DNA of 64,000 bases from Glaucostegus cemiculus (taxonomy: Eukaryota): positions 868,001 to 932,000 of the forward strand of contig CDPCPM010000479.1 in assembly GCA_976551045.1 (NCBI GenBank). The letters are read 5' to 3'. The position numbers and the translations under genes were made by a program. This document shows, one piece after another, positions 32,181-64,000 of this stretch. The notes beneath the pieces are model-generated. The model was not told where the DNA came from. It saw only the letters and a list, made by a program, of their open reading frames with translations, and made no database searches. Within the stretch, counting starts at the first letter, position 1. Each line of letters opens with the position of its first letter.

Positions 32181-32435
32181 TTCAAATCGGTTTTTAGATC
32201 CTATTCGCAGGACTTTGTTCCTCACCATCATACCTCTGCATCTCCTTCTCTTTGCACTATCTCCTCCCACTTTCCAGTTGTGCACCAATCGAGGAGCTCC
32301 GATCTAACCTTGCCAGGCTCAGCTAGCATAGTGAAAGCTACGGAACTGCTGGACTGCTCTCATGACAATGCAAAGCCTGTTCCTGTCTGCCTCCCTCCTG
32401 AATCTGCTTTTCCCACCTCTCTCCAAACTACTTCG
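32181..32435 (+). CDS. RAPGEF1: RAPGEF1 Ser-rich cassette exon B (FKSVFRSYSQDFVPHHH...VCLPPESAFPTS)
   Basis: CT-rich tract ending cctcag|, donor tcg|gtgaga. 255 nt, phase 0-0. Resembles the long-isoform segment YKSVFRSYSQDFxPHHQ (recalled). Confidence 0.88.
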
Positions 32436-38193: not shown

Positions 38194-38286
38194 AGCGAGA
38201 GCAATAGTGAGGATGCTGGTGAGGGTGAATACGTTAATCTGTATTCGTCCAACCAAACCAATGGAGACCTCTCTCACCCTGAAGCA
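38194..38286 (+). CDS. RAPGEF1: RAPGEF1 cassette exon C (SESNSEDAGEGEYVNLYSSNQTNGDLSHPEA)
   Basis: tctcctgtag| acceptor, gca|gtaagt donor. 93 nt, phase 0-0. Contains the AGEGEYVNLYSS motif of long C3G isoforms (recalled). Not in the ORF track. Confidence 0.88.
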
Positions 38287-43595: not shown

Positions 43596-44449
43596 TCGTA
43601 TCGTACAGTACACAGTCGAGCAAAATCCCAAATTTGGTGACCGGAGCCACTGTAATACAGAGCTGCTGGAATTAAAGAAAGCCTGGGTGGGGTAATGCTG
43701 AAGTGGGGTTGGGGAATGAAACTGAATTGAACTGAAATGAAGCCAGGATTCCACATTGGCAATTAGTTTTATTGGGCACATTAGTGCCAGTTGTATTGAA
43801 GTTAACTGCTTTCATTTTATTTGATCTCCAAGGGATTCTGAAAAAGTGATGTAAATAGCAATGCAAATATGATTTGTATTATAAATACACAAAATACATC
43901 ATAAATTGTTAAACTTGTGTTGTCTTAATTAAAATATTCTTTGAAGCAGTGAATATTTTAAAATTAAAGTGGAGACGCTAGATAAATCAAAACTGGTACT
44001 GAAATTCCAGGACTAACAGGGTCTTTATAAAATGTATTGGGTACATTATGCTGTGAAACACAAAAACATCAGTCGTAACTTTGCATTTTAAGTGAGGAAA
44101 CTGTTGGTGGGTTGTTGTATGATGTCAACCTGATTTTAAAAAGACTAAAAATATTACCTGATTAAAAGAAAACATGTTTCATGTGAGTGGCTGTCAAAGG
44201 TGATTCTGATTCAATCAAAAGGTACACCACTTGTATAAAGGCATGATCTCCGGATCTGATCACAGAGTTGAAATACTTTTACCTTCTGCAATATACCTGG
44301 TTGTACAGATTCTTTGTGCAAACATGGATGGTGCATTGCATTCAGCTTTTAGTCCTGTGAACCAATGGAGTGAAATGCTGGGTCTTGCAAAGGAGTTTTG
44401 CATCTGAAGCATATGATTAAGTTACTGTATCAAGTTACGTTGGGTTAGT

Positions 44450-44620
44450 GAAGACGCAAGAGACTGCAGATGCTGGAATTTCAAACAGCTGCAGTTTCAT
44501 GATGGGTCTTGTACCAAAATGTCAACTGTAGCAGTCCAGGTGAAGGGTCTTGACCCAGAACAGCAACTGTCCACTTCCCTCCATAGATGCTGCCTGACCA
44601 GCTGAGGTCCTCCAGTAAAT
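44450..44620 (+). repeat. Penelope-terminal-repeat-derived element with two tandem hammerhead-like units
   Basis: 40-nt period units at 44492-44528 and 44532-44569, followed by ccatagatgctgcctgaccagctgaggtcctccag. Confidence 0.65.
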
Positions 44621-47030
44621 TGGGTTAATGCTTTAAATGTGCATTAATTTTGTTTACTCTTTCTTTGGTTATTAATTTGACCAGTTCGTATGATCTAGTT
44701 TTCAATGTTGAGAATCTAAGGTAAAGCGCGAGATCCATTAAAAGCTTCTATGTCTACAGAAGACCAAATATTTCATGACAGGAAACATGTTACATTTATG
44801 ATTTTCCCCTGGGGTACACATAAGATAAAAATGAACCCCAAAATGGGCTAGTTCTCATATTACCACAATAACAGAACTCAGTGTACCCTGAATCTCCAAA
44901 AAAAAAAATTGAATTGAATGCAAACAATTGTTGCCTCAGCTTCAGAAGAAGAATTCTAATATTCAGAACAGATACAGAATTATTATTGACTGTGCAATAG
45001 GAAGCCTCGCCTCTTTATAGCAGGATTGATTGCGTTGTGACAGCAAACCATTTGGTTTCCAGCAGTTGCCAAAAACAATCAGACAATTCATCACTTCTCA
45101 GAGTGTGTGTGCTCCAGGGAGTGGCGGGGGAAGGGAAGGGTGCACTGGAAGGACGGCACTGGAATCGATATGCAACAATTTTGAATGTATAGTTGAAGTA
45201 AGGAAATTGTCAATTTGGTACAATGTTTCTTGCATGAAAAATAAAAGAATAATTTTACTTATCATCCTAAATTAGAAATCAGGTTTGAGCTTGTTTCCAA
45301 GTTTATACTGAAATGTGCAGCATTCAATACCTATCCCTCATGGTGGAGAATAAGGGATATTTTATCTGTGGGTCTGAAGGTGGCTGATGAGGTTGATCTA
45401 GGAGTGGCAGGTTCTGTTGCAACTGACCTTGGATTCCCTGAGTCATTTTGGTTCGGCATTCTCCCAATACCCACCAAGTATGCACTTGCCTGGAGTGCAT
45501 CTTCTGACAGCTTCTTGCATAATAATGAACATAAAAATGGAAGCCTCACTCTCAGAAGTGCTCTAACTGCACAATTCCCCTGACCTGAAACATTGACTCT
45601 GCTTCTCTTTCTACAGATTCTGTCTGACCCGCTGAGTATTTACAGTCTTCTGTTTTTATTCCCAATACTTAACCTGCTGTTAGAGAATGAATTTACGTTG
45701 GTCTCTGAGGTTCACTAACATGGAAAAACTAAAAAAAAAATCACAGTATAAAACATTTTTAAAAATTGTAGTGGTAATTAAAATGAAAAATACGTTAATA
45801 TTTTTGTAATTGGTAAACTGAAATGTGTTTAATTTTTATTATCTGAAACTGGGTAGTCTTCTGTGACTTCAATTTTATTTCTTCCCATCTCAGAGGGAAG
45901 CACTGTGCATTCTTCATTGTCAGAAAGAATACTATTCATAAATGGATTTATGAGGAAAAAAATAATTGAGTCTTTCACATGGGATTTAGCCTGTCAAGTA
46001 TCTCCTTTGCCACTTCGCACATTGTATGCAAATTGTTTCCGGGTGCTATGTTGTTCATAAGCACTCATTCATTCAAATGCACGTGATTTCTGTCTAATTC
46101 GAGTGCTATTTCATGGAGGTAAATATTTCCCAAAAATTACCAGAAATATTGGACATTTTAAACTTTTATGAACAGACTTTGCCATCATCCTGTAGCCTGA
46201 GCATTTTTGATTAAATATAAATCATTTTTGAACCCTCATTGAGGTTCCTTCCATAATTTTAATTTCAATCCTGGAATCATCTAAGAGTTCAGAATTTGAG
46301 GATTAAGGCGTTATTAATTAACTCAAGAAGAAGGCATTTGTTAATCAGTTTTAATCCATCCTTCCATTCATTATCACTAATTGAAATTCAAGCATAACAA
46401 CTTGTTTCCTTTGTGGATCATTGAAACTTGGTTTTGCCACTTCAGCTACCCACTTCCTCCAAAATATCATCCCCCTGCGGGGTGCTGGGGTGGTGAAACT
46501 AGATCAATGCAGTCTTCATCATACAAACTGGACATGCTACCAGAGATGCTCTGTAATGAGAGGTTTGGGCGGTGCTAGGAGAGAAGTAAAGCTGGGTGTC
46601 ATCAGTGTGGCCCAAGAGATAACATCTGAGAGCCACAGGAGGAAATCTCAGATGGGATACTTCGGTTGTGAATTGGTTTCTGGAAAATGAGCAGTAGTTG
46701 GAAAGATAATGGATATTGGGTCAGATGAGTGCTGGGTCAACACCACAGAGGTGCCGGAGTGTTGACTGTACTGTGTATTTTTATTGTACTAATTTAGAAC
46801 TTGCATTCAGTGACAAAGCAACAGCATTCGTGGGTGATCTCTATAAAATTCCCCACAAAGTTTAGTGATCTCTGCTTAGTATGTTCCCACAGAAACCACA
46901 GTTCCTAGCAATGACCACAGTTAATAGCTACACAGCAGGCTATAATAGTTTTTGCTTTGGCAATCTAATGTGTCCACCCATTCCTCCAGTCGGTCCATTT
47001 CTCCTTGGTCTATTACTATTCTTCTCATAG

Positions 47031-47273
47031 TTTTTTTTTATTTACAGCGTGGTAACAGGCCCTTTCGGCCCTCCAAGTCCACGTCGCCCATTTTAAACAC
47101 CCAAATTAACCTCCCATACGTCTTTCAGAATGTGGGAGGAAACCGGAGCACCCGAAGGAAACCCGCGCAGACACGGGAGAACATACAAACTCCTTACAGA
47201 CAGCGACGGGAATCGAACCCAGATTGCTGGCGCTGTAACAGCGTCGTGCTAACCGCTACGCTATCGTGCCACC
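47031..47273 (-). mobile_element. Full-length V-SINE-like element with intact Pol III boxes (antisense)
   Basis: On the minus strand: A box TAGCGTAGCGG, B box GGTTCGATTCC, V core, CR1-like tail, oligo-A end. CpG-rich. Confidence 0.92.
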
Positions 47274-47479
47274 CGATGCTCCCTATGCTCACAGATATTA
47301 TTGCATTTACCTGTGAAAATTGTGCCCTGTGCAGTCTTCCAAGTACTTAATGTACATTAAAGCGCTCCATATATAAATCTCACTGTATACTTTCCCCTAG
47401 TCTGAAAAACAGTCACTCACTAAGTTTCCTGTCACTTAGCTGTTTTTTTTATCCATGCTACTGGTTTTCTGTTGACAGA

Positions 47480-48230
47480 TAGGGATGATAAGTTTTGGGA
47501 ACCTTGGATAACAAGAGATATTGTAACTTTAGTCAAAAGGTAAAAGGAAACATATGTAAGGGTTAGGAAGCTGAAATCAGAAAAAAAACCCTTGTGGAAT
47601 ATAAAGGAAGCAGGAAAGAACTTGAACAAGAAATTAGCGGGACTGAAAGGGGCCATGAAATATTCTTGGCATGTAGGATTAAGGAGAATCCCAAAGCGTT
47701 TTATATGCATATTAGGAGCATGAGGGTAGCCAGGAAAAGGGTGGGTCCACTTAAGGACAAAGGAAGGAATTTATGCATGGAGCCAGAGGAAGTAGGTGAG
47801 GTCCTTATTTAATACTTTGCATCGGTGTTCACCAAGGTGAAGACCCAGGATGATGGTGAGAGATTAGGGAGTGATATATCAATATTCTAGGACATCTTGA
47901 TATTAAGAAGGGGAAGTTGTTAAGTGTCTTGAAAAACTTTAAGGTGGATATGTCCTCTGGGCTTAATAAGATCTATTCCAAATTACTGAGGGAAGCAGGG
48001 GAATACTGCTGAGGCCTTGACAGAGATCTTTATATTTGCTAGTTATGGGTGAGGTGCCAGTAGACTGGAGAATAGCCTATGTTGTTGCTTTGTTTAAGAA
48101 GGGTAGCAGGGACAATCCAGGAAATTAATGACCAGCAAGCCTTACACCAGTGGTAGGGAAATTATTGGAGGAACCTTTTGGGGACCGGATTTGCTTTCAT
48201 TTGAAAAAGCAAGGACTTGTAAAGGATGAA
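47480..48230 (+). mobile_element. CR1-type LINE internal fragment (linker and RT N-terminus)
   Basis: ORF 47594-47812 (LACRIKENPKAFYMHIRS..RVGPLKDKG..EPEEVGEVL), then a decayed VP.DWRIA.V..LFKKG.RDNPGN motif. Confidence 0.85.
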
Positions 48231-49149
48231 GACAAAAGAGATGGCAGATGCTAGAATCTGGAACACCCAACAGATTGCAGTAAATTTACTATTTTTCCAG
48301 TAAATCTAAGCTTACAACAAAATACTTACTGCTGATACTGTGAATAAGATTTAACACCACATCTTGTTTTACCCATGCCATATTCTGTTTGTTCCCGGAC
48401 TGAATTTATTTTAGTTTATTTGAAATCTGCAGATAAACTGAAGAATCAGCCATCAGAGTCATCAAAAAGTTAGTACATCATTGACAGCTTCTCATTTTTA
48501 CTGTTGACTAAGCAATTCTATTAATTTTATTTTGATGCTTAAAAATATTTAGTTCCTACTTCTTTCTCGACCTCTTCTGAAATTGAAAATGATGCATTAG
48601 CCACATGATAGTGGAATGTAGTGAAGCACAATATTCACCAATTTAAGTATATCAGTGACTTAGAATTGAGAACTGGAATGGCTATTGGGTGATTAAATTA
48701 CTAGGGTATAACTTTAATTCAGTTCCTATTTTTGATTCATTCCTTTGTTCCTTTTATATTTCTTCTATTATAAATTGCTATAGCTGCAATAATAAAGAAT
48801 GACTAAGTTCGTCTTATGGTAATTGTATTCTTAATGGGAGTGAGAGCATAAAGGGATGAATTTTGCACTAATTGGCTCCAATTTACTTCCCAGTAGATAC
48901 TTATGAAATCTTGCAGAAACCACCAGGATGATTCTTTATTGAGAGGCTGTGTTGGAAAGGGTACCACATGGGGTTGCCAAAAAAAGCGATGCCCACAGAA
49001 TAACAAAATTTGTCAACACTGCTGGAATTGTCAAACTCAAATCTTTTAAGTGTTTTTTTTTTCCTGAGGGCATGCTTTTCAAAAAATGCTAATAAGCCAT
49101 TAGAGATTTTTAGAAAAAGGCGTAGAATGTTTTAAAGGCATTAAGATAC

Positions 49150-49985
49150 TATGTGTATATGTGGACTTCTGAAAAGGCTTTTGATAAATATGAATTTAGA
49201 CATATTTAAAACTAGGGTCCATGGGATCAAATGGATCATGGGTAGCTTAGTACACAATTGTCTAAGAGAAGTGAATTGTGGTGAACTATTTTTCTAGACT
49301 GGATGGAAGTATACAGTGATATTTCCTCAAGTTCAACAATTTAATTGAGGAACTGTTTAAAATGAACTAATGCCGTGGCTTTGGAGAGCATGATTTGTAA
49401 AAAAAATTACAGATGATATGAAAGTCAAAAACTGTGAGGAAGATGGCAGTAAATCACTGGGGAGTCAACAGACTGGTGTAATAGCAAACAGATTGACAGA
49501 TAGCACAAAGGGTAAAGACTTATCCCGTTCTGGGTACCATGCTCGAAGAATGTTTCAAGGCTGAGGGATTTCTGTTATGTACTGGACTAGAGGTGCCGTG
49601 ATATCCTCCCTAGAATAGAGAAATCTCAGAAGAGATTCATCTTTTAAATCATAACTGGTGTGCATAGTAAATGAAGAAAAATTGATCATAATGGCTTAAG
49701 GGACAATAATAAGAGGGCAAAGGTTTATGGCAGTTGACAAAAGAACAAGCAAAAACAAATCTTTTATGCAATTTGTGAGTGGGATTTGGAATTCTCTGCC
49801 TGAGGGGGTAAATTGAAATGTGATTGTAACCTTCAAAAGGGAACTGAATGAATAACTGGAGGAAAAATAAAATCAGTGATTTGGAGAAGGAGCGGGGGAT
49901 AGGCCCTAACTGCTGGCTTTTCAAAAACTAACTAGGACTCAATGGACTGTAAGACTTCCAGTAATGTGCCAGTCTGTGATTCTAT
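49150..49985 (+). mobile_element. Highly decayed CR1-type LINE 3' portion
   Basis: gtgtatatgtggacttc..aaaggcttttgataaa (VYxDFxKAFDK-like), with a CR1-like 3' UTR near 49780-49985. Confidence 0.55.
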
Positions 49986-50763
49986 GAGTTGGACTCCTGT
50001 CAGCGTGGATATTGTACTTGTGCAAAGTCTTCAAGTTCATTGCTTTGTTACAGTATCTGAAATGATGGATTTTGATCTGTGAACTTTAATATTCATCTTT
50101 CTCGCTGAACCCAAACCCGAATCCCAAGAGAAGCAATTGAGAAACATTTTACACTGAGGTCTCTGAAACAATGCATTTGTGGTGGGACAGGAAATACTTC
50201 CTTCCCTTACTGCCTCTGTGCACATTTTGAAATACCACCTTAAATACCACCCAAGATGGATCAACTGATGCCTCTTTATTTCACATACCGTGGAGAGGTT
50301 TCAACTTTAATAAAATTGGGCATTTCTATGTGTCATTGCTTAGAAATTAACTTTGAGCTGTCAGTATTGATACAGCAGTATTGATACATGCTCTTGTAAA
50401 TCAGTATAGCTGTTAACATCAAAATTTGACTTGTCCCCCTTTATTTTGGTGTGAGAAAACAGTGTATTTTTTTTTGTGCACAAAATCACAAATCATTGGC
50501 AAACTACTCGCCATAAAGGGTAATTTTGAAACTGAGATGGGAAGGTTTTCTAAAACCTTAAAGTGCAAAGCCCACTGCCTATAACTTAGATTAATTGTGC
50601 AGTTACTATAAACATAATAGATTGAGGAAAACTTCAAACTTTAGCACAAAACAGTCTTTAAATATTATCATTGCTTTTGTTTTGATGGATTTTAAAATGG
50701 AGTTTCCTTTTTTCTTGTGTATGTATTTTAGGACTTTTACATTTTCAACTCTTTATATTCTAG

Positions 50764-50839
50764 GGAGAAGATGGTCCAGAGGTACGAGGAGGGTCAGTCG
50801 ATATTCTCATAGTGCATGCAACTGAGACAGATCGTAAAG
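50764..50839 (+). CDS. RAPGEF1: RAPGEF1 coding exon, REM domain start (GEDGPEVRGGSVDILIVHATETDRK)
   Basis: ttctag| acceptor, g|gtaaat donor. Resembles GDDGPDVRGGSGDILLVHATETDRK. Phase 0 to 1. Confidence 0.96.
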
Positions 50840-51376
50840 GTAAATGTACATTACAGAATGACCTCCAAAGAATGGAGTTAATTTTAGTTTTTTGCAATTC
50901 CAATTATGTTAAGAGAATGAATTATCTTTTGCTTTCCACTGTTGGAATATTGTAACAATCTTGTATTTTTCCATTGACTTTCTCCACATTGAAGATCAAA
51001 TTAGTTGGACTTTTATTGTTTATTTTTAATGGATTTCTTTCAATGTTGCTTTAAATTTACTGTTTTTTTTTGTTGCTTAATGTGTTTTCCCAGTTCTTCC
51101 TGTTGAGTTCTTGCAATATGCTCCTTACATTAAGAACTGAGCTGATGGATAAAGTCAGGTTTAGATTATTGGAGTAGTGACTGAAAATTAGCTAAAGCAA
51201 GTCAAAACCAATTCCATAAAGTTAGCAGCATGCTTTTCTTTAGCTCGAAGGAACATACTTTGTGTTCTAATTAATTATAATGTTGAGGGATATTGGACAG
51301 CATATGAGATTATTCAGTATTCAAAACCAGTGTGTTTCATTCATACTTCCAATTGCCTGCCTGTCTTCCTCCTTAG

Positions 51377-51461
51377 ACTTAGTCCTTTACTGTGAGGCAT
51401 TCCTGACCACCTATCGAACATTCATTCCACCTGAGGACATCATCAAGAAACTGCACCATCG
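51377..51461 (+). CDS. RAPGEF1: RAPGEF1 coding exon, REM domain (DLVLYCEAFLTTYRTFIPPEDIIKKLHHR)
   Basis: ccttag| acceptor; ends at the U12 donor cg|ATATCCTTT. Phase 1 to 2. Confidence 0.95.
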
Positions 51462-51666
51462 ATATCCTTTTTACTAATTTATGCAGGATTCTCAGTTATA
51501 ACAGCGTAAAGGGGCAATTAATGTGAATTGTTGGTGACGTGCACTCAGGAAAGATGTTACTATGAAGAAACTTATCTATACCCTAGTGTCTCCTAATTAT
51601 TTTCACACATGGGCATGCAGGCACGCGGGCACATGCATGCAGATATTTTTCCCTAACTTACGACAC
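51462..51666 (+). other. U12-type (minor spliceosome) AT-AC intron, 205 nt
   Basis: 5' site ATATCCTTT, branch site TTTCCCTAAC at 51648-51657, terminal AC at 51665-51666. Excision restores the frame ...HHR-YEKF... Confidence 0.93.
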
Positions 51667-51759
51667 TTATGAGAAGTTTTGCCACTGTCCAGACACTTTC
51701 AAAAAACGGGTGAGCAAGAATACATTCTTCGTTCTGGTACGAGTGGTGGATGAACTCTG
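51667..51759 (+). CDS. RAPGEF1: RAPGEF1 coding exon, REM domain (YEKFCHCPDTFKKRVSKNTFFVLVRVVDEL)
   Basis: Follows the AC acceptor, donor tg|gtgagt. Resembles YEKFSPFADTFKKRVSKNTFFVLVRVVDELC. Phase 2 to 2. Confidence 0.95.
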
Positions 51760-53064
51760 GTGAGTAATATTGGCAATTACGACATACAAACATGTTTAAG
51801 AAAATAAGTGTTGTTTGTCTGCATGTATTTTTAAATACAGCATCTTTGTCTTATTATTTAAGAAACTAAAATAGATTTTGCTACCTTCATGACTTCAGAA
51901 TTAATCATTGTTATTAATCTGAAGAATATTTTTGCATCTGTATTTTGTATTTGTTGTCAGACTTAGTTTTTTCCATACCAAAAATTTATAAAACTCCAGC
52001 AGAAAATAACACATCTCAAAGCATGTGCTTATTTGCCCAAACCTTCACTACCACCAAAAAATTGCCAGAATTTCTTTATACCAATGCTCCTTTTTGTTGC
52101 TAAGTTTTAAATGATTATTTCTGACCAACTATTTCCTGTACCTCCTTTGGAGCAAAGACTTGTGTTAAAAGTAAAATAGATTGGGCAGACTGAAAATAAA
52201 ATCACCACAGATTTCAAAAAAATCTCACTTTATTCTGAATGATTTACCTTTGTTATGTTGTGAATTGGGTTCTCCTGTATCAAAATATGTTCAGCTGCTA
52301 CTTGAATATGTGAATCTGTGCACTGTGTTCGTGTGTATGCAGCCCGTACGATGCACTCACTTGTGAAGCAATTGAAACTGAAATATCTGCTCAGCTTCCA
52401 TCTTTGCATGCAACACATATAACTTCTGTTTAGTGGTCTCTCAATTATTAGTTTAATTTTCAGGAGTCAATTGAGTTTTGATATGAGAAAGTTGTGTCAT
52501 TTTAAAATAAACTAGAACAAGATAAAATTGGAGGTATTTCAAATTCTTTTGGTGAGATTTTAAATTGCACAGAGTGAAGTAAATTAGTGCAGTGACCTCT
52601 GATAAGTAGCATCGGATAGTTTCCTCATGGTCTTCATCTTTCAAGTTAGTTAGTTGCACACCCTGGGAGCAAAGTGTTGCCAAACTTGCAAGGATCAGTA
52701 TGTACTGAAGTAACTTGCACGAATGGGCAAAATACTTTGGAAGTACTTTGTGCCTCAATTGTGCTTAGTCATCATTGCTACACATTCCAAAACTGTGAGC
52801 CAAATTACTTGGCAGCTAATGTCCCAGATCCACAGCATGCTTTAATAGATTGAGTGGTATGCATTTGTTGTTCAGTGAATTATACGAGTGCAGCTAAGCA
52901 TGCCTCCAGCAGTTTGTGGTGATTTATTGTATCATAACTTGCATCGTATTGATTAGCGCAAGACAAGATTATGTTTCTGAGTAAATATCTTTAACCTTAT
53001 TGTATCCTGAATGTCATTTCCAGTTTCAAAAGCATTTTGTACTCTGGATTTACTTATCAAGAAG

Positions 53065-53845
53065 TATAGAATCATTGAGTTATACAGAACAGAAATGGGC
53101 CCTTCAGCCCATCATGAGGCGGCACGATAGCATAGCAGTTAGCACGACGCTGTTACAGTGCCAGCGATCGGAGTTGGATTCCCGTCGCTGACTGTAAGGA
53201 GTTTGTACATTCTCCCGTGTCTGCGTGGGTTTCCTCTGGGTGCTCCGGTTTCTTCCCACATTCTAAAAGACGTATGAGTAGGTTAATTTGAGGGGTTTAA
53301 ATGGGCGGCGCGGACTCGTTGGGCCGAAAGGGCCTGTTACCACGCTGTAAGTAAAATTTGAAAAATTTGAAATGTCCATGCTGGCCATCAAATTCCTATC
53401 TATACTAATTCCATTTACCAGCACTAGGTCTGTGGCCTACTCTGCCATAGCAATTCAAGTGTTCATCCAGATGATTCTTAAATGTTGTGAGAGTGTCTGC
53501 CTCCACCACCACCTCAGGCAATGTGACCACCCTCTGGGTGGAAAAAATTCTTAGATCTTCTCTAAACCTCTTCCTCCTCACAGTAAACTTTTGTGCTCTG
53601 GTCTTAGACACCTATGATATGGAAACGTTTCTTACTATCTACCCTGTCTATGTCTCTCATAATTTGGTACACTTCTATCAGGTCCCCCCTCAGCCTCATC
53701 TACTCCAAGGGAAACAAGCCCAGCTTATCCTGTCTCATAACTGAAACATTTCCATCCCAGGCATCGTCCTAGTGAATCGCCTCTCGCCTTTTCCAGACCA
53801 GTCATGTCCTTCCAATAGTGCGGTGATCAGAACTGTACACCATTT
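53065..53845 (-). mobile_element. CR1-type LINE 3' fragment interrupted by a SINE
   Basis: ORF 53405-53611 (RFREDLRIFSTQRVV..LPEVVVEADTLTTFKNHLD); the tail continues on the other side of the SINE (53080-53116). Confidence 0.85.
53118..53371 (+). mobile_element. Full-length V-SINE-like element
   Basis: Head ggcggcacgatagcatagcagttagc, V core, tail gggccgaaagggcctgttaccacgctgtaa plus repeated aaaatttg. Reverse-complement match to 47031-47273. Confidence 0.92.
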
Positions 53846-54789
53846 GGGAAATACATAAAGTTCAGTTCAGGAAAAAGTACTTCAGGAGATTAACTGAGGA
53901 AGGGGCCTACTGAGTATCGTTGTTCATGGACTTTCAAAGGAATAGATCAACTTTTTTTTGTCTTGGGTGTACTTTGGTTATTTAATCTCACCTCTGATTC
54001 TGTAAACCTTTTCTATCAGTGATCATCATCACTGTGTAGGTAAGAAGCAAGTTGGGATACTAAAAACCATATTAACTAATAAAAATGATCTGTTTCTGCC
54101 CAATCAAATAAAAGTAGTTCTCCTTGTCCATAACTAATTACTCTGTGATTAGTTGCTAAAATCATAATATCATACCTGACATGAAGGTTTTCTCTCATTA
54201 TAAACATGGGATATTCTCTTATACCTGTAGTGCAGAAATAATGGAGGGTAAATGGATCGGAACAAACAGTGGCTCAAATGAGCCATTTGGTCTGTAGTTC
54301 TGATTGCCCTTTGGGTTTAACATCCTAAAGAGTAGTATGGATGTATGTTGTTGCATATATTGAGATCATTCACTCATCTCTTCCTGATTCTATACCCGTA
54401 CCTCCTGGCTGTAACCTTGGGCTGGTACCTATTTCTCATCTAACTGCTGTCCTTTGTAACAAAAGCTCAATGATAATACCCAAAAGAACCCAACTACAAT
54501 CCTATTTGATTCCACCTATAAGCAGACATTTTCTCTGATTCTGATATGGGGAGTTTCAAAGCCATTGCCTCTAGTTTCCACCCCAAAGTATTTTCTCGCT
54601 ACCTACAGCAACTGTAGGAGGGGTACACCAGATAGTCAGAAACTTGGCAATGTATTCAAACCTGAGATGTGTTTCCTATCACATCTTCACTATCACTAAG
54701 ACCAGCTACCTTCCCCATGTGTAAGTTTATTAATTTTCCCAGATATAAGCATCAGTGTTTTTTGATGTTTTGCCTTTGACAAATTAGTG

Positions 54790-55830
54790 GAAAGTTACTG
54801 TGAACTGCTGTAGTCCTTCTGGTGCAGGTACTCCGTCAATGTTGTTCTAGGGTTTTGACCCATTGAAAAGAATTGCGATTTATTTTTTTCCCAAGGGAGA
54901 GGAACCTGTTTCCCATGCAACTGCTCTCTTCTTGTCCTTGCTGGTAAGGGCCACAGGTTTTGGAGGTGCTGTTGCACCTTATGAGATGTATAGTGCAGTT
55001 TTGGTGCACCCGGAATGGAGCGAATGAATATTTAACGTGGTGAATTTGGTGCCAGTTAAGTTGACTCTCTGTCAAGCTGTCTGTTGTTGGAGATGTATTC
55101 CTCCTGGCAGGTGGAGAGTATTCTGTAATCCTGACTTGTGCTTTGCAGATAGTGGAAAGGCTTTGGGATGCCAGGGTGTGAGTCACTTGCGGCAGCATAC
55201 ACAACTGATCTGTTCTTGTAGCCATAGTACTTACGTGGCTGGCCCTGTTGAATTTCCTGTCAAGGGTGACCCCCAGGATAAATTTATTGGTTGACTTGGT
55301 GCTGATAATCAGAGTAGTTAGATTTTATGGTGATAGTGATTGCCTGGCACTTTTGTGGCATGAATGTTACTTGCCACTTACCAGTCCAAGCTTGATTGTT
55401 GTCTAGGTGTCGTTACATGCAGGCATGGATAGGCTGAGAAGTTGTAAATAGAATTGATTGTGCAAACATCAGTGACCATCCTCACTTCTGACCTTTATAA
55501 TGGAAGATCATTAGTGAAGCTGCCAAAGATGGCTGGGCCTAGGAAATGCCATGAGGGAACTACAGTGATGAGTTGGCAATACTGTAATTGGTCTTGAATA
55601 ACCACAGCCATCTTCTGTGGGCACCATGACTCCGATCATTGGCATGTTTTCCCCCTGTTAACCAGTTGTACTAGAGCTCCTTCATGCCACACATGGTATA
55701 ATGCTACTTTAATGTCAGAGGCAGTCACTCTAGTCTCTCCTCTGGAATTCGGCTCTTTAGTCCATGTTTGGATCAAGGCCAAGGGTGGGTTTTGGATCCA
55801 CGTGGTCCAAGCAGAATCGAAACTGGACAT
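54790..55830 (-). mobile_element. Decayed LINE RT fragment (CR1/L2 group)
   Basis: Minus-strand ORFs 55636-55830 (LIQTWTKE.NSRGETRVTASDIKVALYHVWHEGAL, ALDIxxAFDxVWH-like) and 54836-55225 (LSTICKAQVR..EYSP). Confidence 0.7.
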
Positions 55831-57510
55831 TGGTGTGCAGGTATAAACACACTGCAGACTTTGGCAGGTTAGACATCGTGTGGAAAGAGAGTTAATGATT
55901 CAGGTCCTAAGACTGGCAGAACTGGAAAAACGAGAAAACAAGGGAGTTTTCAATTTCAGAGAAGGTGAGGAGAGCAATATCTCTGAAAGGGAAGCATCAA
56001 GTAGGTTGATAGGCACATAGAACCAGTTTATGCTTTGTCTGCGTTATGTGTGGCTAACAGTGGTTGTGGGACGTGCCCAGTAGCTCAGCTTGTATCAAAG
56101 GAGAGTGAGAAACTGAGCCAAAATAAATTGCAAAAATGGCAGGTTATTGAAGAGTATGCCACTTGAAAGGATTACTAATAGCATTTTCTATTGCCTCAAT
56201 AATTGAGAATAGATTGATTTGAGCAGTAATTGGATTTTTCCCACTTTCTGTGAACAGAACACGTCAGTCATTTTTCACATTGGCTGTTGCCAGGGTTGTA
56301 AGTGTACAGGTACAGCTTGGCTCGAGATGCTGCTAGTTCTGAAGCACAGGTCTTCAACGTTGCAGCTGGGATGTTGTTGCATAACCTTAGCTGTAGAAAG
56401 GGCTCAGCCATTTCATGATAACAATGAATCAACTTGGCAGACTTGCTGAGATGCGGGAAATTTCAGGAGGAACCTTTAGTAATATTGCCAGTTTTACATC
56501 TGCCTCAGCTTACGTGCTGAAATCCTCGACCACATCTTTGCTACCTCTGGAGTTAACTTTTTCAAGTCACTACTAAGTAGGGTTATACCTTCCATCCTGC
56601 ACATCCTTCAGCTCATCTAAAATTCTACTACCTATATCCCATCTTGCAGTGTTTCATGCTCACTAATTTTCATTACCTTGTAGATTAAGCAATTTCAGAA
56701 GTCACCCTTTTTAAAAAGAAATCTGACCATGACTTAGCTGCAATGGCCTACTTCTGCTCCTTTGGCTTGAGATCTTGAGATGTTGACCCTGCATCTAAAT
56801 TCCTTCATTTCTACAACTTCTGAAATATCTGTGCTCCAAATCTGGCTTCTTCGCATCCCCAAATTTAAACACTCCATTGTTGGCAGCCCCTTGCCATTAA
56901 CTGCCTTCCCTCCTTAAAAAAAATCTCCTCTGCTACTTTCCTGCTTTGAGATGTTTCTTTTATCTGCATCCTCTTTTCCCATAATATATCTTTGTACATT
57001 TTCTGTTGAATCTTGTTTGAATAAAACACCTTTATAGGAAAGTTACACCATTATTAATAATGCTGTATAATTGCAAATTGTTGTTTACAGATAATGAAGT
57101 ACATTTGAAATGTTGCCTGTGTTGTAATGCTGGAAGTACTCCAGTTACTTGGGAAGAAGGACCTAAATGCATATTATTGAATGCCATGCAAATTACAATT
57201 ATGTTAGTTTGTTCTGTAAGCATTGCGTAATATTCAATACCAGTGCCTTAAGAGTGCTCACATGATTGACTGGCAACTAGTGACACAGATTATGATGATA
57301 TCTAATGTGGAAGTAACCTATATGCCCTTTTTAATATCTGCATAACCCCTTTTTTTTCCTGTACTTATTTCAGAAGAATGCTTTCTAGTTAAAAAAAAAA
57401 GGGTAAATATTCAAAGTCTGCAGTAAGAGTCTAGTCTAGAAGTTCTACCTTTTATGCTATACCTGTTGCACATCATCTGATCAATTTTGTTTTGTTGCTT
57501 CCTTTCCCAG

Positions 57511-57696
57511 TCTGGTAGAGCTGTCGGATGACATCCTGAAGTTGCTGATGGAACTTGTGTTCCGTCTAGTGTGTAGTGGTGAGCTGAGTCTGGCCCGGGT
57601 TCTAAGAAAGAATATTCTGGATAAAGTAGATCAGAAGAAGACTGTGAAATATGCTGGTTTGATGAAGCCGTTGGCTGCACGTGGGGTAGCAGCAAG
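57511..57696 (+). CDS. RAPGEF1: RAPGEF1 coding exon (LVELSDDILKLLMELVFRLVCSGELSLARVLRKNILDKVDQKK...PLAARGVAAR)
   Basis: tttcccag| acceptor, ag|gtacag donor. Near-identical to C3G. Phase 2 to 2. Confidence 0.97.
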
Positions 57697-57891
57697 GTAC
57701 AGGTTCCATGTATATTTTTTTTAGACAATATTATTTTACCTTGCTTTCTTGTAAGGTTTATAAACAAATAGATGGAAATGGGTAGTCTCTTAATTTTTGT
57801 CAGTGGTTGGGAGAATCTGTTGTGTGAAAACAGAATTAATTCAGTCCTCAACTTCTGGTAACACTTGAACTGCTGCCTTTTTTCTCTCCAG

Positions 57892-57976
57892 GCCTGGAAC
57901 CCTTCATGACTTCCACAGTCATGAGATTGCTGAACAGTTGACACTGCTAGATGCTGAGCTGTTCTACAAAATAGAG
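57892..57976 (+). CDS. RAPGEF1: RAPGEF1 coding exon, CDC25 domain start (PGTLHDFHSHEIAEQLTLLDAELFYKIE)
   Basis: tctccag| acceptor, gag|gtattt donor. Matches the recalled human peptide. Phase 2 to 0. Confidence 0.97.
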
Positions 57977-58139
57977 GTATTTGAATAAGTCATTGCTCTG
58001 CAAGTCATACAGATTATTACATTTTCATGAACTACACTGATATGAGGTTAGCTTATCCTGTTAAAACATGGTGCTGTTCTATCTAACTGAATCATTGAAA
58101 AAATTGTGGGCCAGTTGAAGATTGGTTCGAGGATTCAGA

Positions 58140-58930
58140 TGAGAAAAAGAATCATTTGGCCTATAGTGTTTATGCCAGTCAAAAAAAGCTACCCAGCCTC
58201 ATCCCTCCTTCCAACACTCCATTCATAGCCCTGAAGCTCTTGGATACATGTAAATATTTTATAGGTGACAAGGATTTCTGCATCTATCATCCTTTCAGGC
58301 AGTGGAGTCCAGACCCCTGCCACCCCCTCTCCTCTAATCCTACTGATTACTCTATTTCTTATGTCCCTTTCTGGAGTCCATCCTGCTTACTGTGTGTAAG
58401 CCCCTTGTGATTTTATAAGATCGATTAAAATTTCCCTCAGTTTCATCTGCTTCAAAAGAAAGCAAACCAAGAGCATCCTATCATTCCTAATTGCAAAAAG
58501 TTTGCTTTGCACCTGTCAGTGCGGTCACATTTTTCCTGTAATGTAATGGCACAGTACTTGAGCCATAGTCTCCCTGCACTTGGATTTCATGCATCAGTTT
58601 GAAAGGCAAAGCATCCCAATGTGGCTTTTTAACTATCATATTAACTTGATCTTTGGACATAAACTTCCAGTGTTCTTCCATAGTAAATATCAAATGGAGT
58701 GTTTTTCTCGGCCTTTTTGCATCTTAAATGCATTGCCTTACCGCTAGATTACTTGTCTGTCCAGCTGAGCGGGCCATCTATATTTACATGTCTTCTAAAT
58801 GTTTTCTCCTCACTGTCACCCATATGCCCAACTTTTGTATCATCTGCAAACTCTAACAGGCTTCAAAAACACTCATTAATGTATACAGAAAGCAAGGACT
58901 AAGACAAAGCCCAGTGGAGTCCTGCTAGTA
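58140..58930 (-). mobile_element. Decayed CR1-type LINE 3' portion
   Basis: Motif order shared with other minus-strand copies (ccaacttttgtatcatctgcaaac; ttcaggcagtggagtccag). Confidence 0.55.
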
Positions 58931-59320
58931 ACACAACATCAGATCAGCATAAGTGGGCAATAATATGCACCTGCATGATGAGAAAACTGAGAATTAAGTA
59001 GAAGCATTTGGTTTTAAGAATTGTAGTACAAGTAAGTGACCGCTAAAGATAATAAATCCTGGACTGTGGTCATAGCTGGTGGACCTGTTTAATGTTGAAG
59101 CAGATTAGACCATTCTTCAGGAAGGGATGCTGATTATCAAATTAGAATGCTCACAGGTGAAATTTAAGCTGACAACTTTGCTCATGTTTCTGTGCTCCAG
59201 GTTAAATTCTATTGGTGATTCCTTTGTTCCTTTACATTCTGATCCAAGTTATATGGTGCTAGTCTAGCAAATGTTATGGCTACCTTCATCTCTCTATTTT
59301 ATCACTTCTTTTAATGACAG

Positions 59321-59415
59321 ATCCCTGAGGTTTTACTCTGGGCCAAAGAACAGAATGAAGAGAAGAGTCCGAACCTAACACAGTTTACAGAGCACTTCAA
59401 CAATATGTCCTATTG
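59321..59415 (+). CDS. RAPGEF1: RAPGEF1 coding exon, CDC25 domain (IPEVLLWAKEQNEEKSPNLTQFTEHFNNMSYW)
   Basis: gacag| acceptor, tg|gtgagc donor. Phase 0 to 2. Confidence 0.97.
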
Positions 59416-60724
59416 GTGAGCATGAAGCAGTGTTTCTGAGCTCTTCTGTGCCAAAGTGGTTGAGATAAGGAGAACTGAGTTCTGGGTGTAACAACTGAAA
59501 GCTTCTGCTTATGAATAATGAGATGGAATAAAAGTAGCCAATACAAGATCACGAGTCAATACAGGGGTTGAATGTCGTGACGGGGTGCGCAGTAGAGTGG
59601 AGACTTCTAGAGATGAGATGAAAGATTACCTGAGAAACAATGGTTCAGTGGTTGGTGATAGGATCGTGAAGCAACGAGAGGTCTGAGGAAATGTTGGAGG
59701 GCTGGCTTCTAGTTTGGTAAAAGTTAGTTTGCCATACCATCTCATCCTTGATATCGAGATTTAATGGTTGTCAAGATTGGATTGGTGAGAATGAAATGGT
59801 GCAGAGGGAGGGATTAAGGACAATGAAACCAAAATGGTCAATATCAAGCAGCAGTTTCTAGTGAAATGTTGAAGGAGGAAAGGAAATCTGAGGGAAGGGT
59901 CCAGGTGAAAGGAGAATTCTGAAGATGGCGGAAATGGTCAACTGTTAATGTGGAGAAAAGGGGGTTGGGATGCTATTTTTAACCAAGAAGCAGACACAAA
60001 AGTGAATGTGACAGAAGAGTTCAACATCATGTCAAGCTGCATGCATTAATGTTATAAGAGGACCATGGAGGGAATAATTGGGAAATATAGTGAAAATATG
60101 CCAGTAGATGAAATGGACCTGCAGACAAGAACAAAGTGTGCATCAGTGCTGCTGAAGACTTTCAAAGAGCTGATGGGCAGTGAGCAGAATAGTTCCAGTT
60201 CTAAAATTTAAGACTCCAGGTTTGACTCCTTTATGGTGGGAGTGAGGAAAAGGACCATACTACATACATGTATCAAAACACAGAAGGACACCATGGTGAT
60301 TTGCCTGTAGTGCTTTCACTCCTCTCTGGGAATACTTCTCTGTTGTCAGATCTTTGCTGTCTTTAGTTATATGTTCAGCATTGGTATCTCATTTTGTGGA
60401 GAACTGTAACAGAAAACACTTGCTGATGCTGGCAAAGTTCATTAGAAGCAATACACCAGCCACCATCTCCAGTCTTCCTCCATTTCACATTTTGTTTTGA
60501 ACATGTCAACTTGTGAGCTATGTGTCTGCTTCTCCACAGTCCATTGAACTAATACCTACTCATCACGCGTGTACCTAAACATTGAGTGTTAACAAGGCAG
60601 AGTGACTGCAAAGCATTGCAGCTGAGCCAGATGTATTTTCTCACTACCAATGCCAGTCTCCCAGGAATGGATGCTGGATATCAAATGAGAGAATGTTTTC
60701 ATGTTAAATCCTTTGGTCTTTCAG

Positions 60725-60803
60725 GGTGAGGTCAATAATTATTCAACAGGAAAAGGCACAAGATCGAGAACGGTTACTCCTCAAGTTTATCAAAATTATG
60801 AAG
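60725..60803 (+). CDS. RAPGEF1: RAPGEF1 coding exon, CDC25 domain (VRSIIIQQEKAQDRERLLLKFIKIMK)
   Basis: ctttcag| acceptor, aag|gtatgt donor. Phase 2 to 0. Confidence 0.97.
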
Positions 60804-61048
60804 GTATGTACTGGTACAAAGTTTAATATTGTTACGTTTCTCTGCTCTCAATTCTGAGAATTGTAAGATTTGCTCAACAAAAAATATGCCTTATGTATAT
60901 AATTTAATACATAGAACTTAGATGACATGTGGCTAGAAAAATATATGGTTGTGTGTGGTGAAATCTCACCAAAAATGTCCACGTAACTTGGTAACTATGA
61001 AATCCTTGGAACACATGCTGAAATTCAAACTTTTTTTTCCCTTTTTAG

Positions 61049-61150
61049 CACTTACGCAAATTGAATAATTTTAATTCATACCTGGCTATATTGTCTGCGT
61101 TAGACTCTGCACCTATTCGAAGGTTGGAATGGCAGAAGCAGACTTCAGAG
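61049..61150 (+). CDS. RAPGEF1: RAPGEF1 coding exon, CDC25 domain (HLRKLNNFNSYLAILSALDSAPIRRLEWQKQTSE)
   Basis: tttttag| acceptor, gag|gtaagc donor. Phase 0 to 0. Confidence 0.97.
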
Positions 61151-62149
61151 GTAAGCATCATGAGTCTTCAGGCATTTTTTAAATTGTTTAATTCATTTTT
61201 GTAAAGTTTAAACTATAAATTGGTGCAAAACGCCTTCAGTGCACCAAAAGCTATATTTAAAGTGACACTGTCATCCCAGTTTTATGTGGCTGCTATAGCA
61301 TAGTCTGTATGCCATTTCGTAAGTGGGTACCGTCATGTATATTTCAATGCAAAACACATACTAAAAACTCTGGAAATGAACTGATTGAATAATGTACTAA
61401 TTGCAAAATACATCCAGGCAGTTAATGATGGAATTGCTGGATTGATAAAATTAGAATACTTCTTCCCCCAAGATTGGGTTCGATGCACATGATGTGCTTG
61501 CTAAAGGTGTGTGACTAATAACCATTTTGAACTACATATCAGATTGGTCAATATTGTCATTGGAATACATTTTTTCCTGTACTTGTATCCTTCAGATTGG
61601 GGAACAAATTTCCACAGAAGATTAAATCATTGCAGATTATTCAATAGCAAGATTTAAACCTAACCTTGGAATAGCCTTTTCTTGTAGTGAATGTAATGGG
61701 TCGTCTGGAATGGCAACTTAGTTTGCCACAGGGAATCTACTTCTGTTTTCACAGTTGGACATGGCTTAAAATACATCTACATTACTCAGTGTTTTCCTGA
61801 ATCTTGTTGCTTTCACTCAGCTGTCACATGCCAAATTAAATCACTCTTTTGAAGTTAAGAATAAGCCATTAATACTGGAAATCAGGATAGAAAATGCCAT
61901 AGCTCAAGCCATTCTGAATCTGAAAGATAACAGTAATTGATTTTGATTGGAGTCATTGATTTTTTAATGTGTAACAGGAAAATTGTAATAATTCTTCAGA
62001 ACTTCAATTTGTAGAATCTTTGTTTTAGCTGATCTCAACTCTATTTCCATTCTTTACAGTGGGCAAAATGGGGAAAAATATAAGCTCATACCAGGTATCA
62101 AAGTACAGTCCATGAAATGTGAGAGGTCTGCAACCTGAGACTCTCAGTA

Positions 62150-62250
62150 CTGTTCCGATGAAGGGTTTCCAACTTGAAACATTCATTCTCTTTCCACAGA
62201 TGCTGCCTGATTTGCTGACTGTTTCTAGCATTTTCTGTTTTTAGCTCAGG
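62150..62250 (+). repeat. Penelope-terminal-repeat-derived short repeat with a hammerhead-like core
   Basis: ttccgatgaagggtttccaacttgaaacatt...ccacagatgctgcctgatttgctgactgtttctagcattttctg. A similar copy lies at about 62610-62712. Confidence 0.65.
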
Positions 62251-64000
62251 TCACTTGCCGTGGGACTATGATTGAGAAAGTAATTGCAAAAGACAATGAA
62301 ATAGTGACGGGGTGTAATCTCAGGATATGGGATTGGCCTTCCAGGACACGATAAATTTATTTACACAAAGTTGTAAATCTTTGAAATTCTTTACCTCCAG
62401 GATGTTCAGTTGAGTAAATTCAAAGCTGAGATTGTTAGGTTTTTCGACACTCAGATAATCAATAGATACTGAGATTGTGTAGGATAGTGGGGTTAAGGCA
62501 AAATATCCACCATAATTTTGTTGAATGTGGCTCAGACCTTTATAACCTCTTTGTTTATGTTCTTTTGAAACCATGCTTTTTTAATAGAAGTAGCAAGATG
62601 AAGGTCTTTCCCAGTTCTAACAAAGTGTCACTAAACCAAAATGTCGACTGTTTCTCTTTCCACAGATGCTGCCTGACCTGAGATTTTCTATCATTTTCTG
62701 TTTTTATTACAGCAAGACGAATGTATATACTGCAGAATAAATAAATTCAGTAATGTAAGCATTGAAAACATTGAGCTTTGTCTTCCCTCTACGGCCCATA
62801 GCACGTTGTTCTACAAAGTACCTTGAGTAAAGATCTATATAAGTAACTGGTGACAAACTTTAGTACACAGCATTATCATCAGGGTGCTTCTGTATTAAAG
62901 GCATAGACCCTACCATCATGGTGTAAGCAGATGCTTGTCACATGGCTGATTTTAAAAAAAACCTGTGGCTGAGCACAGCTAGACAGTGTTCTCTGAATGC
63001 TGGTTATGAGAACGTGTTCAAAGGTCTGTGCCAATTATGCCTAGATTGCAGAGATGACAGAAGTTGTGGCTGAGCCTTTGCACTATAAATTATAAACTAG
63101 AGAAAGAAGATAGGGTGAAAGTGACTTATGTTCAATAGGATAGTGACGGTGCACTTCTCCTAAAGTGAGCTGAACTGATTATTAAATCAACTGAGTTTTC
63201 TTTGTACCTCCTTTTGCCACACAGGAAGCTCATTATGTTCTCCAGCAATTGCTGTGGCCATCCTTAGTCAATTGTCCAAAAAAAGCAGCAAGTTATTCTC
63301 CTGGGGAGGAGAGCTGTTAAAGATAAGTGGACTCTGGCTTCAGGCTAATGCACCTGTTTGAAGAAAGAGTGGATTTTAATCAACACTCCACAGTGGACTC
63401 AGTAGTTTGAAACCTGAGCCAGTAGAGGTAGATTTGTATAGAAATTGCAACATTGAAGCAGTTCAGCCTTTAGTTATCCAATACTAGTCTTTATCCTCTG
63501 AGTAAAGTGTGGCCATCTTCCCTATTTGTCCAATGTCATAGTGTACCTCGTTCTTCTATTTTCCTTTGCTCACCCATTCAATTTATTCCAATTTGTTGAC
63601 GTGATCTCTGCTTCAAACATTATTTCTATTAGTGCATAGTGCAGTAATATGCAAAATGATTCTTCAGCAATCTCTTCTATATTTTCATTTTTTAGCCTGT
63701 AATCTATGTCTCTCTTTCTGGTGCTCACAACCAGTGGAAGCTACGATTTCCACCTATGCTGTCTCATCCCTTCTATTTTAAACACCAGTTACCCATCATC
63801 TTCCCTGAAGAAAATGCCCTCCATTTGTCAATCTCAAAGGCTTTGCTGAATCAGGCTGACCTGGCTAATTAACCAGGCCTGGCAGGTGTGTAACCAGCAT
63901 CTGGAGTTCTGTCCTTTCCCACATACCTGAGCTCTATAGGTAGTTCTAACTGGGTGAGATCAGCACCCTCCCATGTTGGGTGAATGTACTGTATGTAGTT

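Follow-up and report, generated by a model that had tools for sequence, protein, structure and literature searches.

Two questions are raised by the locus described here: whether a 205-nt AT...AC segment that interrupts the REM-domain coding sequence of RAPGEF1 in what is likely a ray is a genuine intron, and which spliceosome would remove it. Our analysis strongly favors (probability about 0.97) a spliced-out AT-AC intron in the REM part of RAPGEF1 that sits at the same codon as a minor intron catalogued in human and is probably excised by the minor spliceosome.

The host gene of the intron is RAPGEF1 (C3G). Its gene body runs on the plus strand from 38 to 61150 of the window (the whole stretch of 64,000 nt that was analysed) and comprises 14 exons, modelled on the Pristis isoform P0002, with only an approximate start for the first exon; the last three exons of the gene model lie beyond the window end. 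The full 17-exon model (window plus the next 5.5 kb) encodes 813 residues, 791 of which are identical to P0002, and its first residues are likely intronic. GT-AG ends were found for 15 of the 16 modelled introns, the minor intron being the only AT-AC intron. A 61-residue exon used as query retrieved 2840 proteins, the best 120 of which are RAPGEF1/C3G wherever they carry a name; matches of 100% to this exon came from Pristis, Rhinoraja and Narcine, and the best matches are batoid RAPGEF1. The DNA thus probably comes from a cartilaginous fish of the ray or skate type. Two further exons with AG...GT ends (32181-32435 and 38194-38286) lie inside a 24.9-kb intron; they are found in the longer Pristis isoform P0010, are absent from P0002 and by their sequence appear to be alternative exons of C3G.

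Three exons of the plus strand frame the region of interest. The penultimate exon before the minor intron (50764..50839; GEDGPEVRGG...TDRK) was placed by tblastn, boundary refinement and spliced reads and is followed by a 537-nt GT-AG intron. The exon directly upstream (51377..51461; LVLYCEAF...KKLHHR) belongs to the REM domain, ends with the CG of an arginine codon and was placed by Pfam profile and reads. It was the only one of three exons to match Pfam when exons were searched singly (RasGEF_N profile positions 25-50, E 3.3e-6, just under the cut-off). The exon directly downstream (51667..51759, 93 nt; YEKFCH...VVDEL) is supported by reads, contigs and the gene model; it is followed by a GT-AG intron reaching 57510, and its 30-aa product gave no match as query in a PDB search. 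In the Pristis protein of 1049 residues the junction of the two exons falls on residue 711, which belongs to Pfam RasGEF_N (664-728) and precedes RasGEF/CDC25 (815-985), in agreement with the original prediction of a U12-type AT-AC intron in the REM domain of RAPGEF1.

The intron itself occupies 51462..51666 of the plus strand (205 nt, phase 2; 18 spliced reads and three contigs). As read from the window sequence it starts with ATATCCTTTTT at 51462 and ends with TTTTTCCCTAACTTACGACAC. The donor ATATCCTTT matches the conserved U12 5' splice site [AG]TATCCTTT, and the longer U12-type 5' splice site ATATCCTTTT (51462..51471, plus strand) is complementary to the 5' end of the genome's U11 as well as to the AAAGGA box of U6atac. 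The U12-type branch site TTTTCCCTAACTT (51647..51659, plus strand) is TTCCTTAAC-like and complementary to U12 snRNA. The branch site TTTCCCTAAC carries two adenosines at 51655 and 51656, located 11 and 10 nt before the last intron base, the second being the likely branch nucleotide and the first its alternative. The branch site is thus 10 or 11 nt, depending on which A is used, from an AC 3' splice site (51665..51666, plus strand), and no polypyrimidine tract is present in the 10 nt that follow the branch A (CTTACGACAC). Splicing at these ends restores an arginine codon split after its second base (CG|T TAT GAG) and joins exons 51377-51461 and 51667-51759 into ...KKLHHR|YEKFCH..., with the letters LVLYCEAFLTTYRTFIPPEDIIKKLHHR|YEKFCHCPDTFKKRVSKNTFFVLVRVVDEL at the junction. 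Donor, branch site, terminal AC, lack of a tract and restored frame had all been predicted earlier and proved exact when the sequence was read again. The motif ATATCCTT alone occurs at 6 sites on both strands of the window versus 4.5 expected; in combination with the branch consensus and an AC within 500 nt, 1 site was found versus 0.005 expected (both strands), where the expectation derives from 200 third-order Markov simulations and the pattern was chosen after the site had been seen.

Transcripts were assessed by aligning RNA of organism A, three raw runs plus one contig set, to positions 50701-51900. Organism A is a close relative of the window's species, with 4 differences in 254 exonic nt of the three exons. 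The reads examined make up about 18-24% of each run and give a depth of 1 to 15; joints were listed at 3 or more reads from 2 starts. All three raw runs splice 51461 to 51667 (AT..AC, position unambiguous), with a total of 18 reads (X13, 6; X14, 1; X15, 11), and the same joint is present in contig X1 of this organism and in both contigs from two further organisms, B and C (X5 and X6). Excision at AT...AC is therefore seen in the reads and contigs of relatives, the joint of 51461 to 51667 being the one that the original prediction had named. The upstream GT-AG intron was covered by 17 reads (joint 50839>51377). No other joint over the minor intron rose above the listing threshold in 50701-51900, and in a wider alignment (44001-64000), which repeats dominate, 51461>51667 again accounts for every joint listed over it, although rare cryptic joints there may have escaped the listing; GT-AG boundaries in transcripts, named beforehand as the result that would speak against the intron, were not found in the relatives' reads and contigs.

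Elsewhere in these alignments a few reads fall into the downstream GT-AG intron at 51781-51900, in two runs with mate orientation opposite to that of the exonic reads. Introns of 44001-64000 contain high-copy transcribed repeats, to which partial reads align by the thousand on either strand (e.g. 44480-44615, 47060-47260, 53080-53320, 56740-56780 and 62190-62680); these repeats resemble the ends of shark/ray SINEs and LINEs.

The correct junction peptide, KKLxxRY[ET][KR]FCH, was found in 113 of the 120 best orthologues (of 2840). The remaining seven (P0091, P0092, P0093, P0095, P0102, P0107 and P0108) are wrong at the AT-AC junction: five turtle models read R-Y-P-S-K-S-F across it, one swallow model continues as R-Y-P-F into intronic sequence, and both exons flanking the minor intron are missing from one sturgeon model. 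The R-Y-P read-through in the turtle and swallow models suggests that their introns also start with ATATCC. The expectation that gene finders misplace this intron thus holds, and the seven mis-modelled entries should be taken as an annotation warning for database orthologues.

The components needed to remove such an intron are encoded in the host genome. Matches above the Rfam gathering score were obtained for all four minor snRNAs, namely U6atac (23 matches, best 138 bits), U12 (2), U11 (2) and U4atac (1). The 23 U6atac matches (including L016-L018) stand against one or two for each of the others, and most of them are likely retrocopies. Pairing was computed with the best snRNA copies of the same genome. 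Intron positions +5 to +10 are complementary to U11 nt 2-7, with a G-U and one more pair extending this to nt 2-9, and positions +4 to +9 are complementary to the AAAGGA box of U6atac (nt 11-16). Against U12 nt 16-27, the segment 51647-51659 forms 11 pairs over 12 positions (10 Watson-Crick pairs, 1 G-U and 1 mismatch) and leaves one A bulged; the CCCTAAC within the branch site contains one mismatch to U12. According to the accessible part of PMC3584512, U12 introns are defined by a conserved 5' site and branch site, have no pyrimidine tract, show a branch distance optimum of 11-13 nt and can branch from either A; by that measure the 10-11 nt of the ray intron lie at the short edge of the optimum. 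Both this distance and the mismatch to U12 count against removal by the minor spliceosome.

Following the established mechanism, we infer that U11 would pair with intron positions +3 to +10 and U12 with the branch site, bulging an A; U6atac would then take the place of U11 at the 5' site, and the AC 10-11 nt downstream would be picked by distance, without a pyrimidine tract. Judged by these signals, the minor (U12) spliceosome likely removes the ray intron. A second possibility is that an AT-AC intron is spliced here by the major (U2) spliceosome. U2-dependent AT-AC introns do exist, as stated in the consulted section of PMC1557818, and the ray branch site is one base off consensus. The features of that class, i.e. 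a U1-type donor and a polypyrimidine tract with no U12 branch site, are not what the ray intron displays: its donor is the full U12 consensus with no U1-type site, its U12 branch site stands at a U12 distance, and the tract is missing. The human orthologue, moreover, is assigned to the U12 class in the supplementary rows of PMC8280824, where ZRSR2 mutation leads to its retention. We regard removal by the major spliceosome as very improbable. Even less credit can be given to the idea that the true ends are a GT-AG or GC-AG pair nearby and that the AT-AC ends are a coincidence or an assembly error. An enumeration of donors in 51400-51599 and acceptors up to 51744 returned no in-frame GT-AG pair; the sole options of the major type that preserve the frame are two GC-AG pairs whose donor departs from the consensus, and the turtle and swallow database models do use different ends. 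Every listed joint over the intron is nevertheless 51461>51667, which already refutes other ends for the relatives; only this junction yields the peptide shared by the 113 orthologues, and the intron region occurs just once in the genome, with a 100% match, at the search sensitivity used. Minor-spliceosome removal of an AT-AC intron with ends at 51462 and 51666 thus remains the reading of choice.

A regulated switch, in which controlled retention sets the level of C3G or gives a truncated product with the SH3-binding region but no CDC25 domain, would be an addition to this reading and not a replacement for it. Read-through translation reproduced the predicted HHRYPFY-stop, with the in-frame TAA at 51475..51477 (plus strand), 282 nt upstream of the following exon junction, so that retention stops translation ahead of the catalytic domain. 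By the 50-nt rule this distance predicts NMD, and a retained RAPGEF1 transcript is likely an NMD target. Failure of splicing would accordingly bring a retained RNA to a stop four codons in, and the RNA would likely be degraded, through NMD or decay in the nucleus; the outcome would be a reduced output of C3G and not a short protein. The earlier claim that retention removes the whole CDC25 domain is hence right about the position of the stop, whereas a protein without CDC25 is less likely than RNA decay. A switch would also fit the proposal, in the part of PMC3584512 at hand, that slow minor splicing is rate-limiting, the human PSI of 5-12% in controls and 29% in ZRSR2 mutants (supplementary rows of PMC8280824) and mouse retention values of 0.06-0.10 in three columns (table excerpt of PMC6717393). 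In the ray lineage, by contrast, intronic depth was zero over 51501-51660 in all three raw runs (at shallow depth and in reads of a relative, whose intron may differ), and the small depth in bin 51461-51500 mostly reflects the exonic base 51461. The suggestion that the ray intron is rate-limiting gains no support from these shallow data, in which no retained reads were seen, and our literature search found no paper linking C3G to the minor spliceosome. A regulated switch on top of minor splicing is consequently considered unlikely.

The REM position of the intron recurs among RasGEF paralogues. A genome search with PF00618 gave 14 matches, a lower bound, 12 of which cover the first half of the domain. 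Seven of these 12 REM exons show a donor-like site at +53 from a T-Y-R-like motif, AT-type U12 donors in two (RAPGEF1 and L014) and GT donors in five (L002, L006, L007, L008 and L010), the six paralogue donors being predicted from sequence; the other five (L003, L004, L005, L009 and L011) read on past +53. The REM exons of L002, L006, L007, L008 and L010 end in AG|GT at the codon and phase of the minor intron. From peptide motifs we take L002, L006 and L007 to be RalGDS-like and L008 and L010 to be SOS-like. L014 (G000:C69:7836076, minus strand) is a paralogous RasGEF gene, likely RAPGEF5, whose U12 donor ATATCCTTT sits at this +53 offset of the REM domain; the donor context, ACA|ATATCCTT, agrees with that given for mouse Rapgef5 in PMC6717393, where RAPGEF5 is also given a minor intron. 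For the 3' end of the L014 intron, four weak candidates and none that convinces were found within 30 kb downstream. Taken together, the predicted donors suggest that the REM intron position likely exists in both a U12 and a U2 form within one genome, which makes it a data point for studies of intron conversion. One might speculate that a single ancestral REM position of the RasGEF family switched spliceosome class and that lineages keeping the U12 form (C3G, RAPGEF5-like) came under minor-spliceosome control, but we hold this to be a long shot. If true, retention of the short RAPGEF1 intron would tune Rap1 signalling in vertebrates.

The possibility that the intron is novel, which had been left uncertain, can be settled in the negative, as catalogues for human and mouse already include the orthologous intron. 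RAPGEF1 appears among the U12 intron-containing genes in the consulted part of PMC13135317. The accessible supplement of PMC8280824 gives the human intron as U12 A-type, AT_AC, at chr9:131589979-131592098, with donor context ...CAGTACAG|ATATCCTTT and acceptor context ...TTTCTTTAACCCGTGCTCCAC|ATATGA. In the same material its PSI rises from 0.052 to 0.288 in ZRSR2 mutants (padj 3.5e-13), where alternative donors and acceptors are used as well. Its retention is not significant on CENATAC depletion (padj 0.91 and 0.86; patient sample 0.41), a result that counts against the minor-spliceosome reading. The mouse Rapgef1 minor intron (chr2:29730613-29732826) is listed as 'Both' for mouse and human in the rows available from PMC6717393, with lengths of 2214 nt in mouse and 2120 nt in human. 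Rows of that source reporting a human 'cryptic 5'/3' site in all 8 tissues, MSI 1' were rejected as evidence of regulation, since they may represent a mapping shift caused by the human ATAT repeat. The supplements of PMC4667643 and PMC2831892 contain no RAPGEF1 entry, and the accessible main texts of PMC11347168 and PMC10639083 carry no mention of shark, RAPGEF or Chondrichthyes. The ray case adds a cartilaginous-fish copy of a catalogued intron and is of little value as a discovery; as a compact, natural 205-nt AT-AC intron with unambiguous ends it is a handy minigene reporter.

Compared with its human counterpart, the ray intron lies in the same gene, at the same arginine codon and in phase 2 (human Q-Y-R|Y-E, ray H-H-R|Y-E), the flanks being CAG TAC AG|A TAT GA in human and CAC CAT CG|T TAT GA in the ray, with Arg followed by Tyr-Glu. 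Shared as well are the AT-AC ends, the donor ATATCCTTT, a U12 branch site and the lack of a pyrimidine tract. From this correspondence of host gene, codon position and phase, the ray intron is judged to be an orthologue inherited from the common ancestor and not a new gain. The two differ in length (205 versus 2120 nt, the ray intron being ten times shorter), in the branch site (TCCCTAAC in the ray, TCTTTAAC in human), in the distance between the second branch A and the intron end (10 versus 12 nt) and in the boundaries, where the human ATAT repeat is absent in the ray and the ray downstream exon starts with TTAT. The mouse Rapgef1 intron resembles that of the ray in its 5' site CCG|ATATCCTTC, the exon ending with the CG of the arginine codon, and differs in its length of 2214 nt and its branch site TGAACCTTAACC. 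A-type U12 introns are further found in human RAPGEF3, RAPGEF4, RASGRP1 and RASGRP3 (AT-AC) and in RAPGEFL1 (AT-AG); these are the same intron type in the same protein family, although in different genes, and their flanks suggest that they may interrupt the same REM codon.
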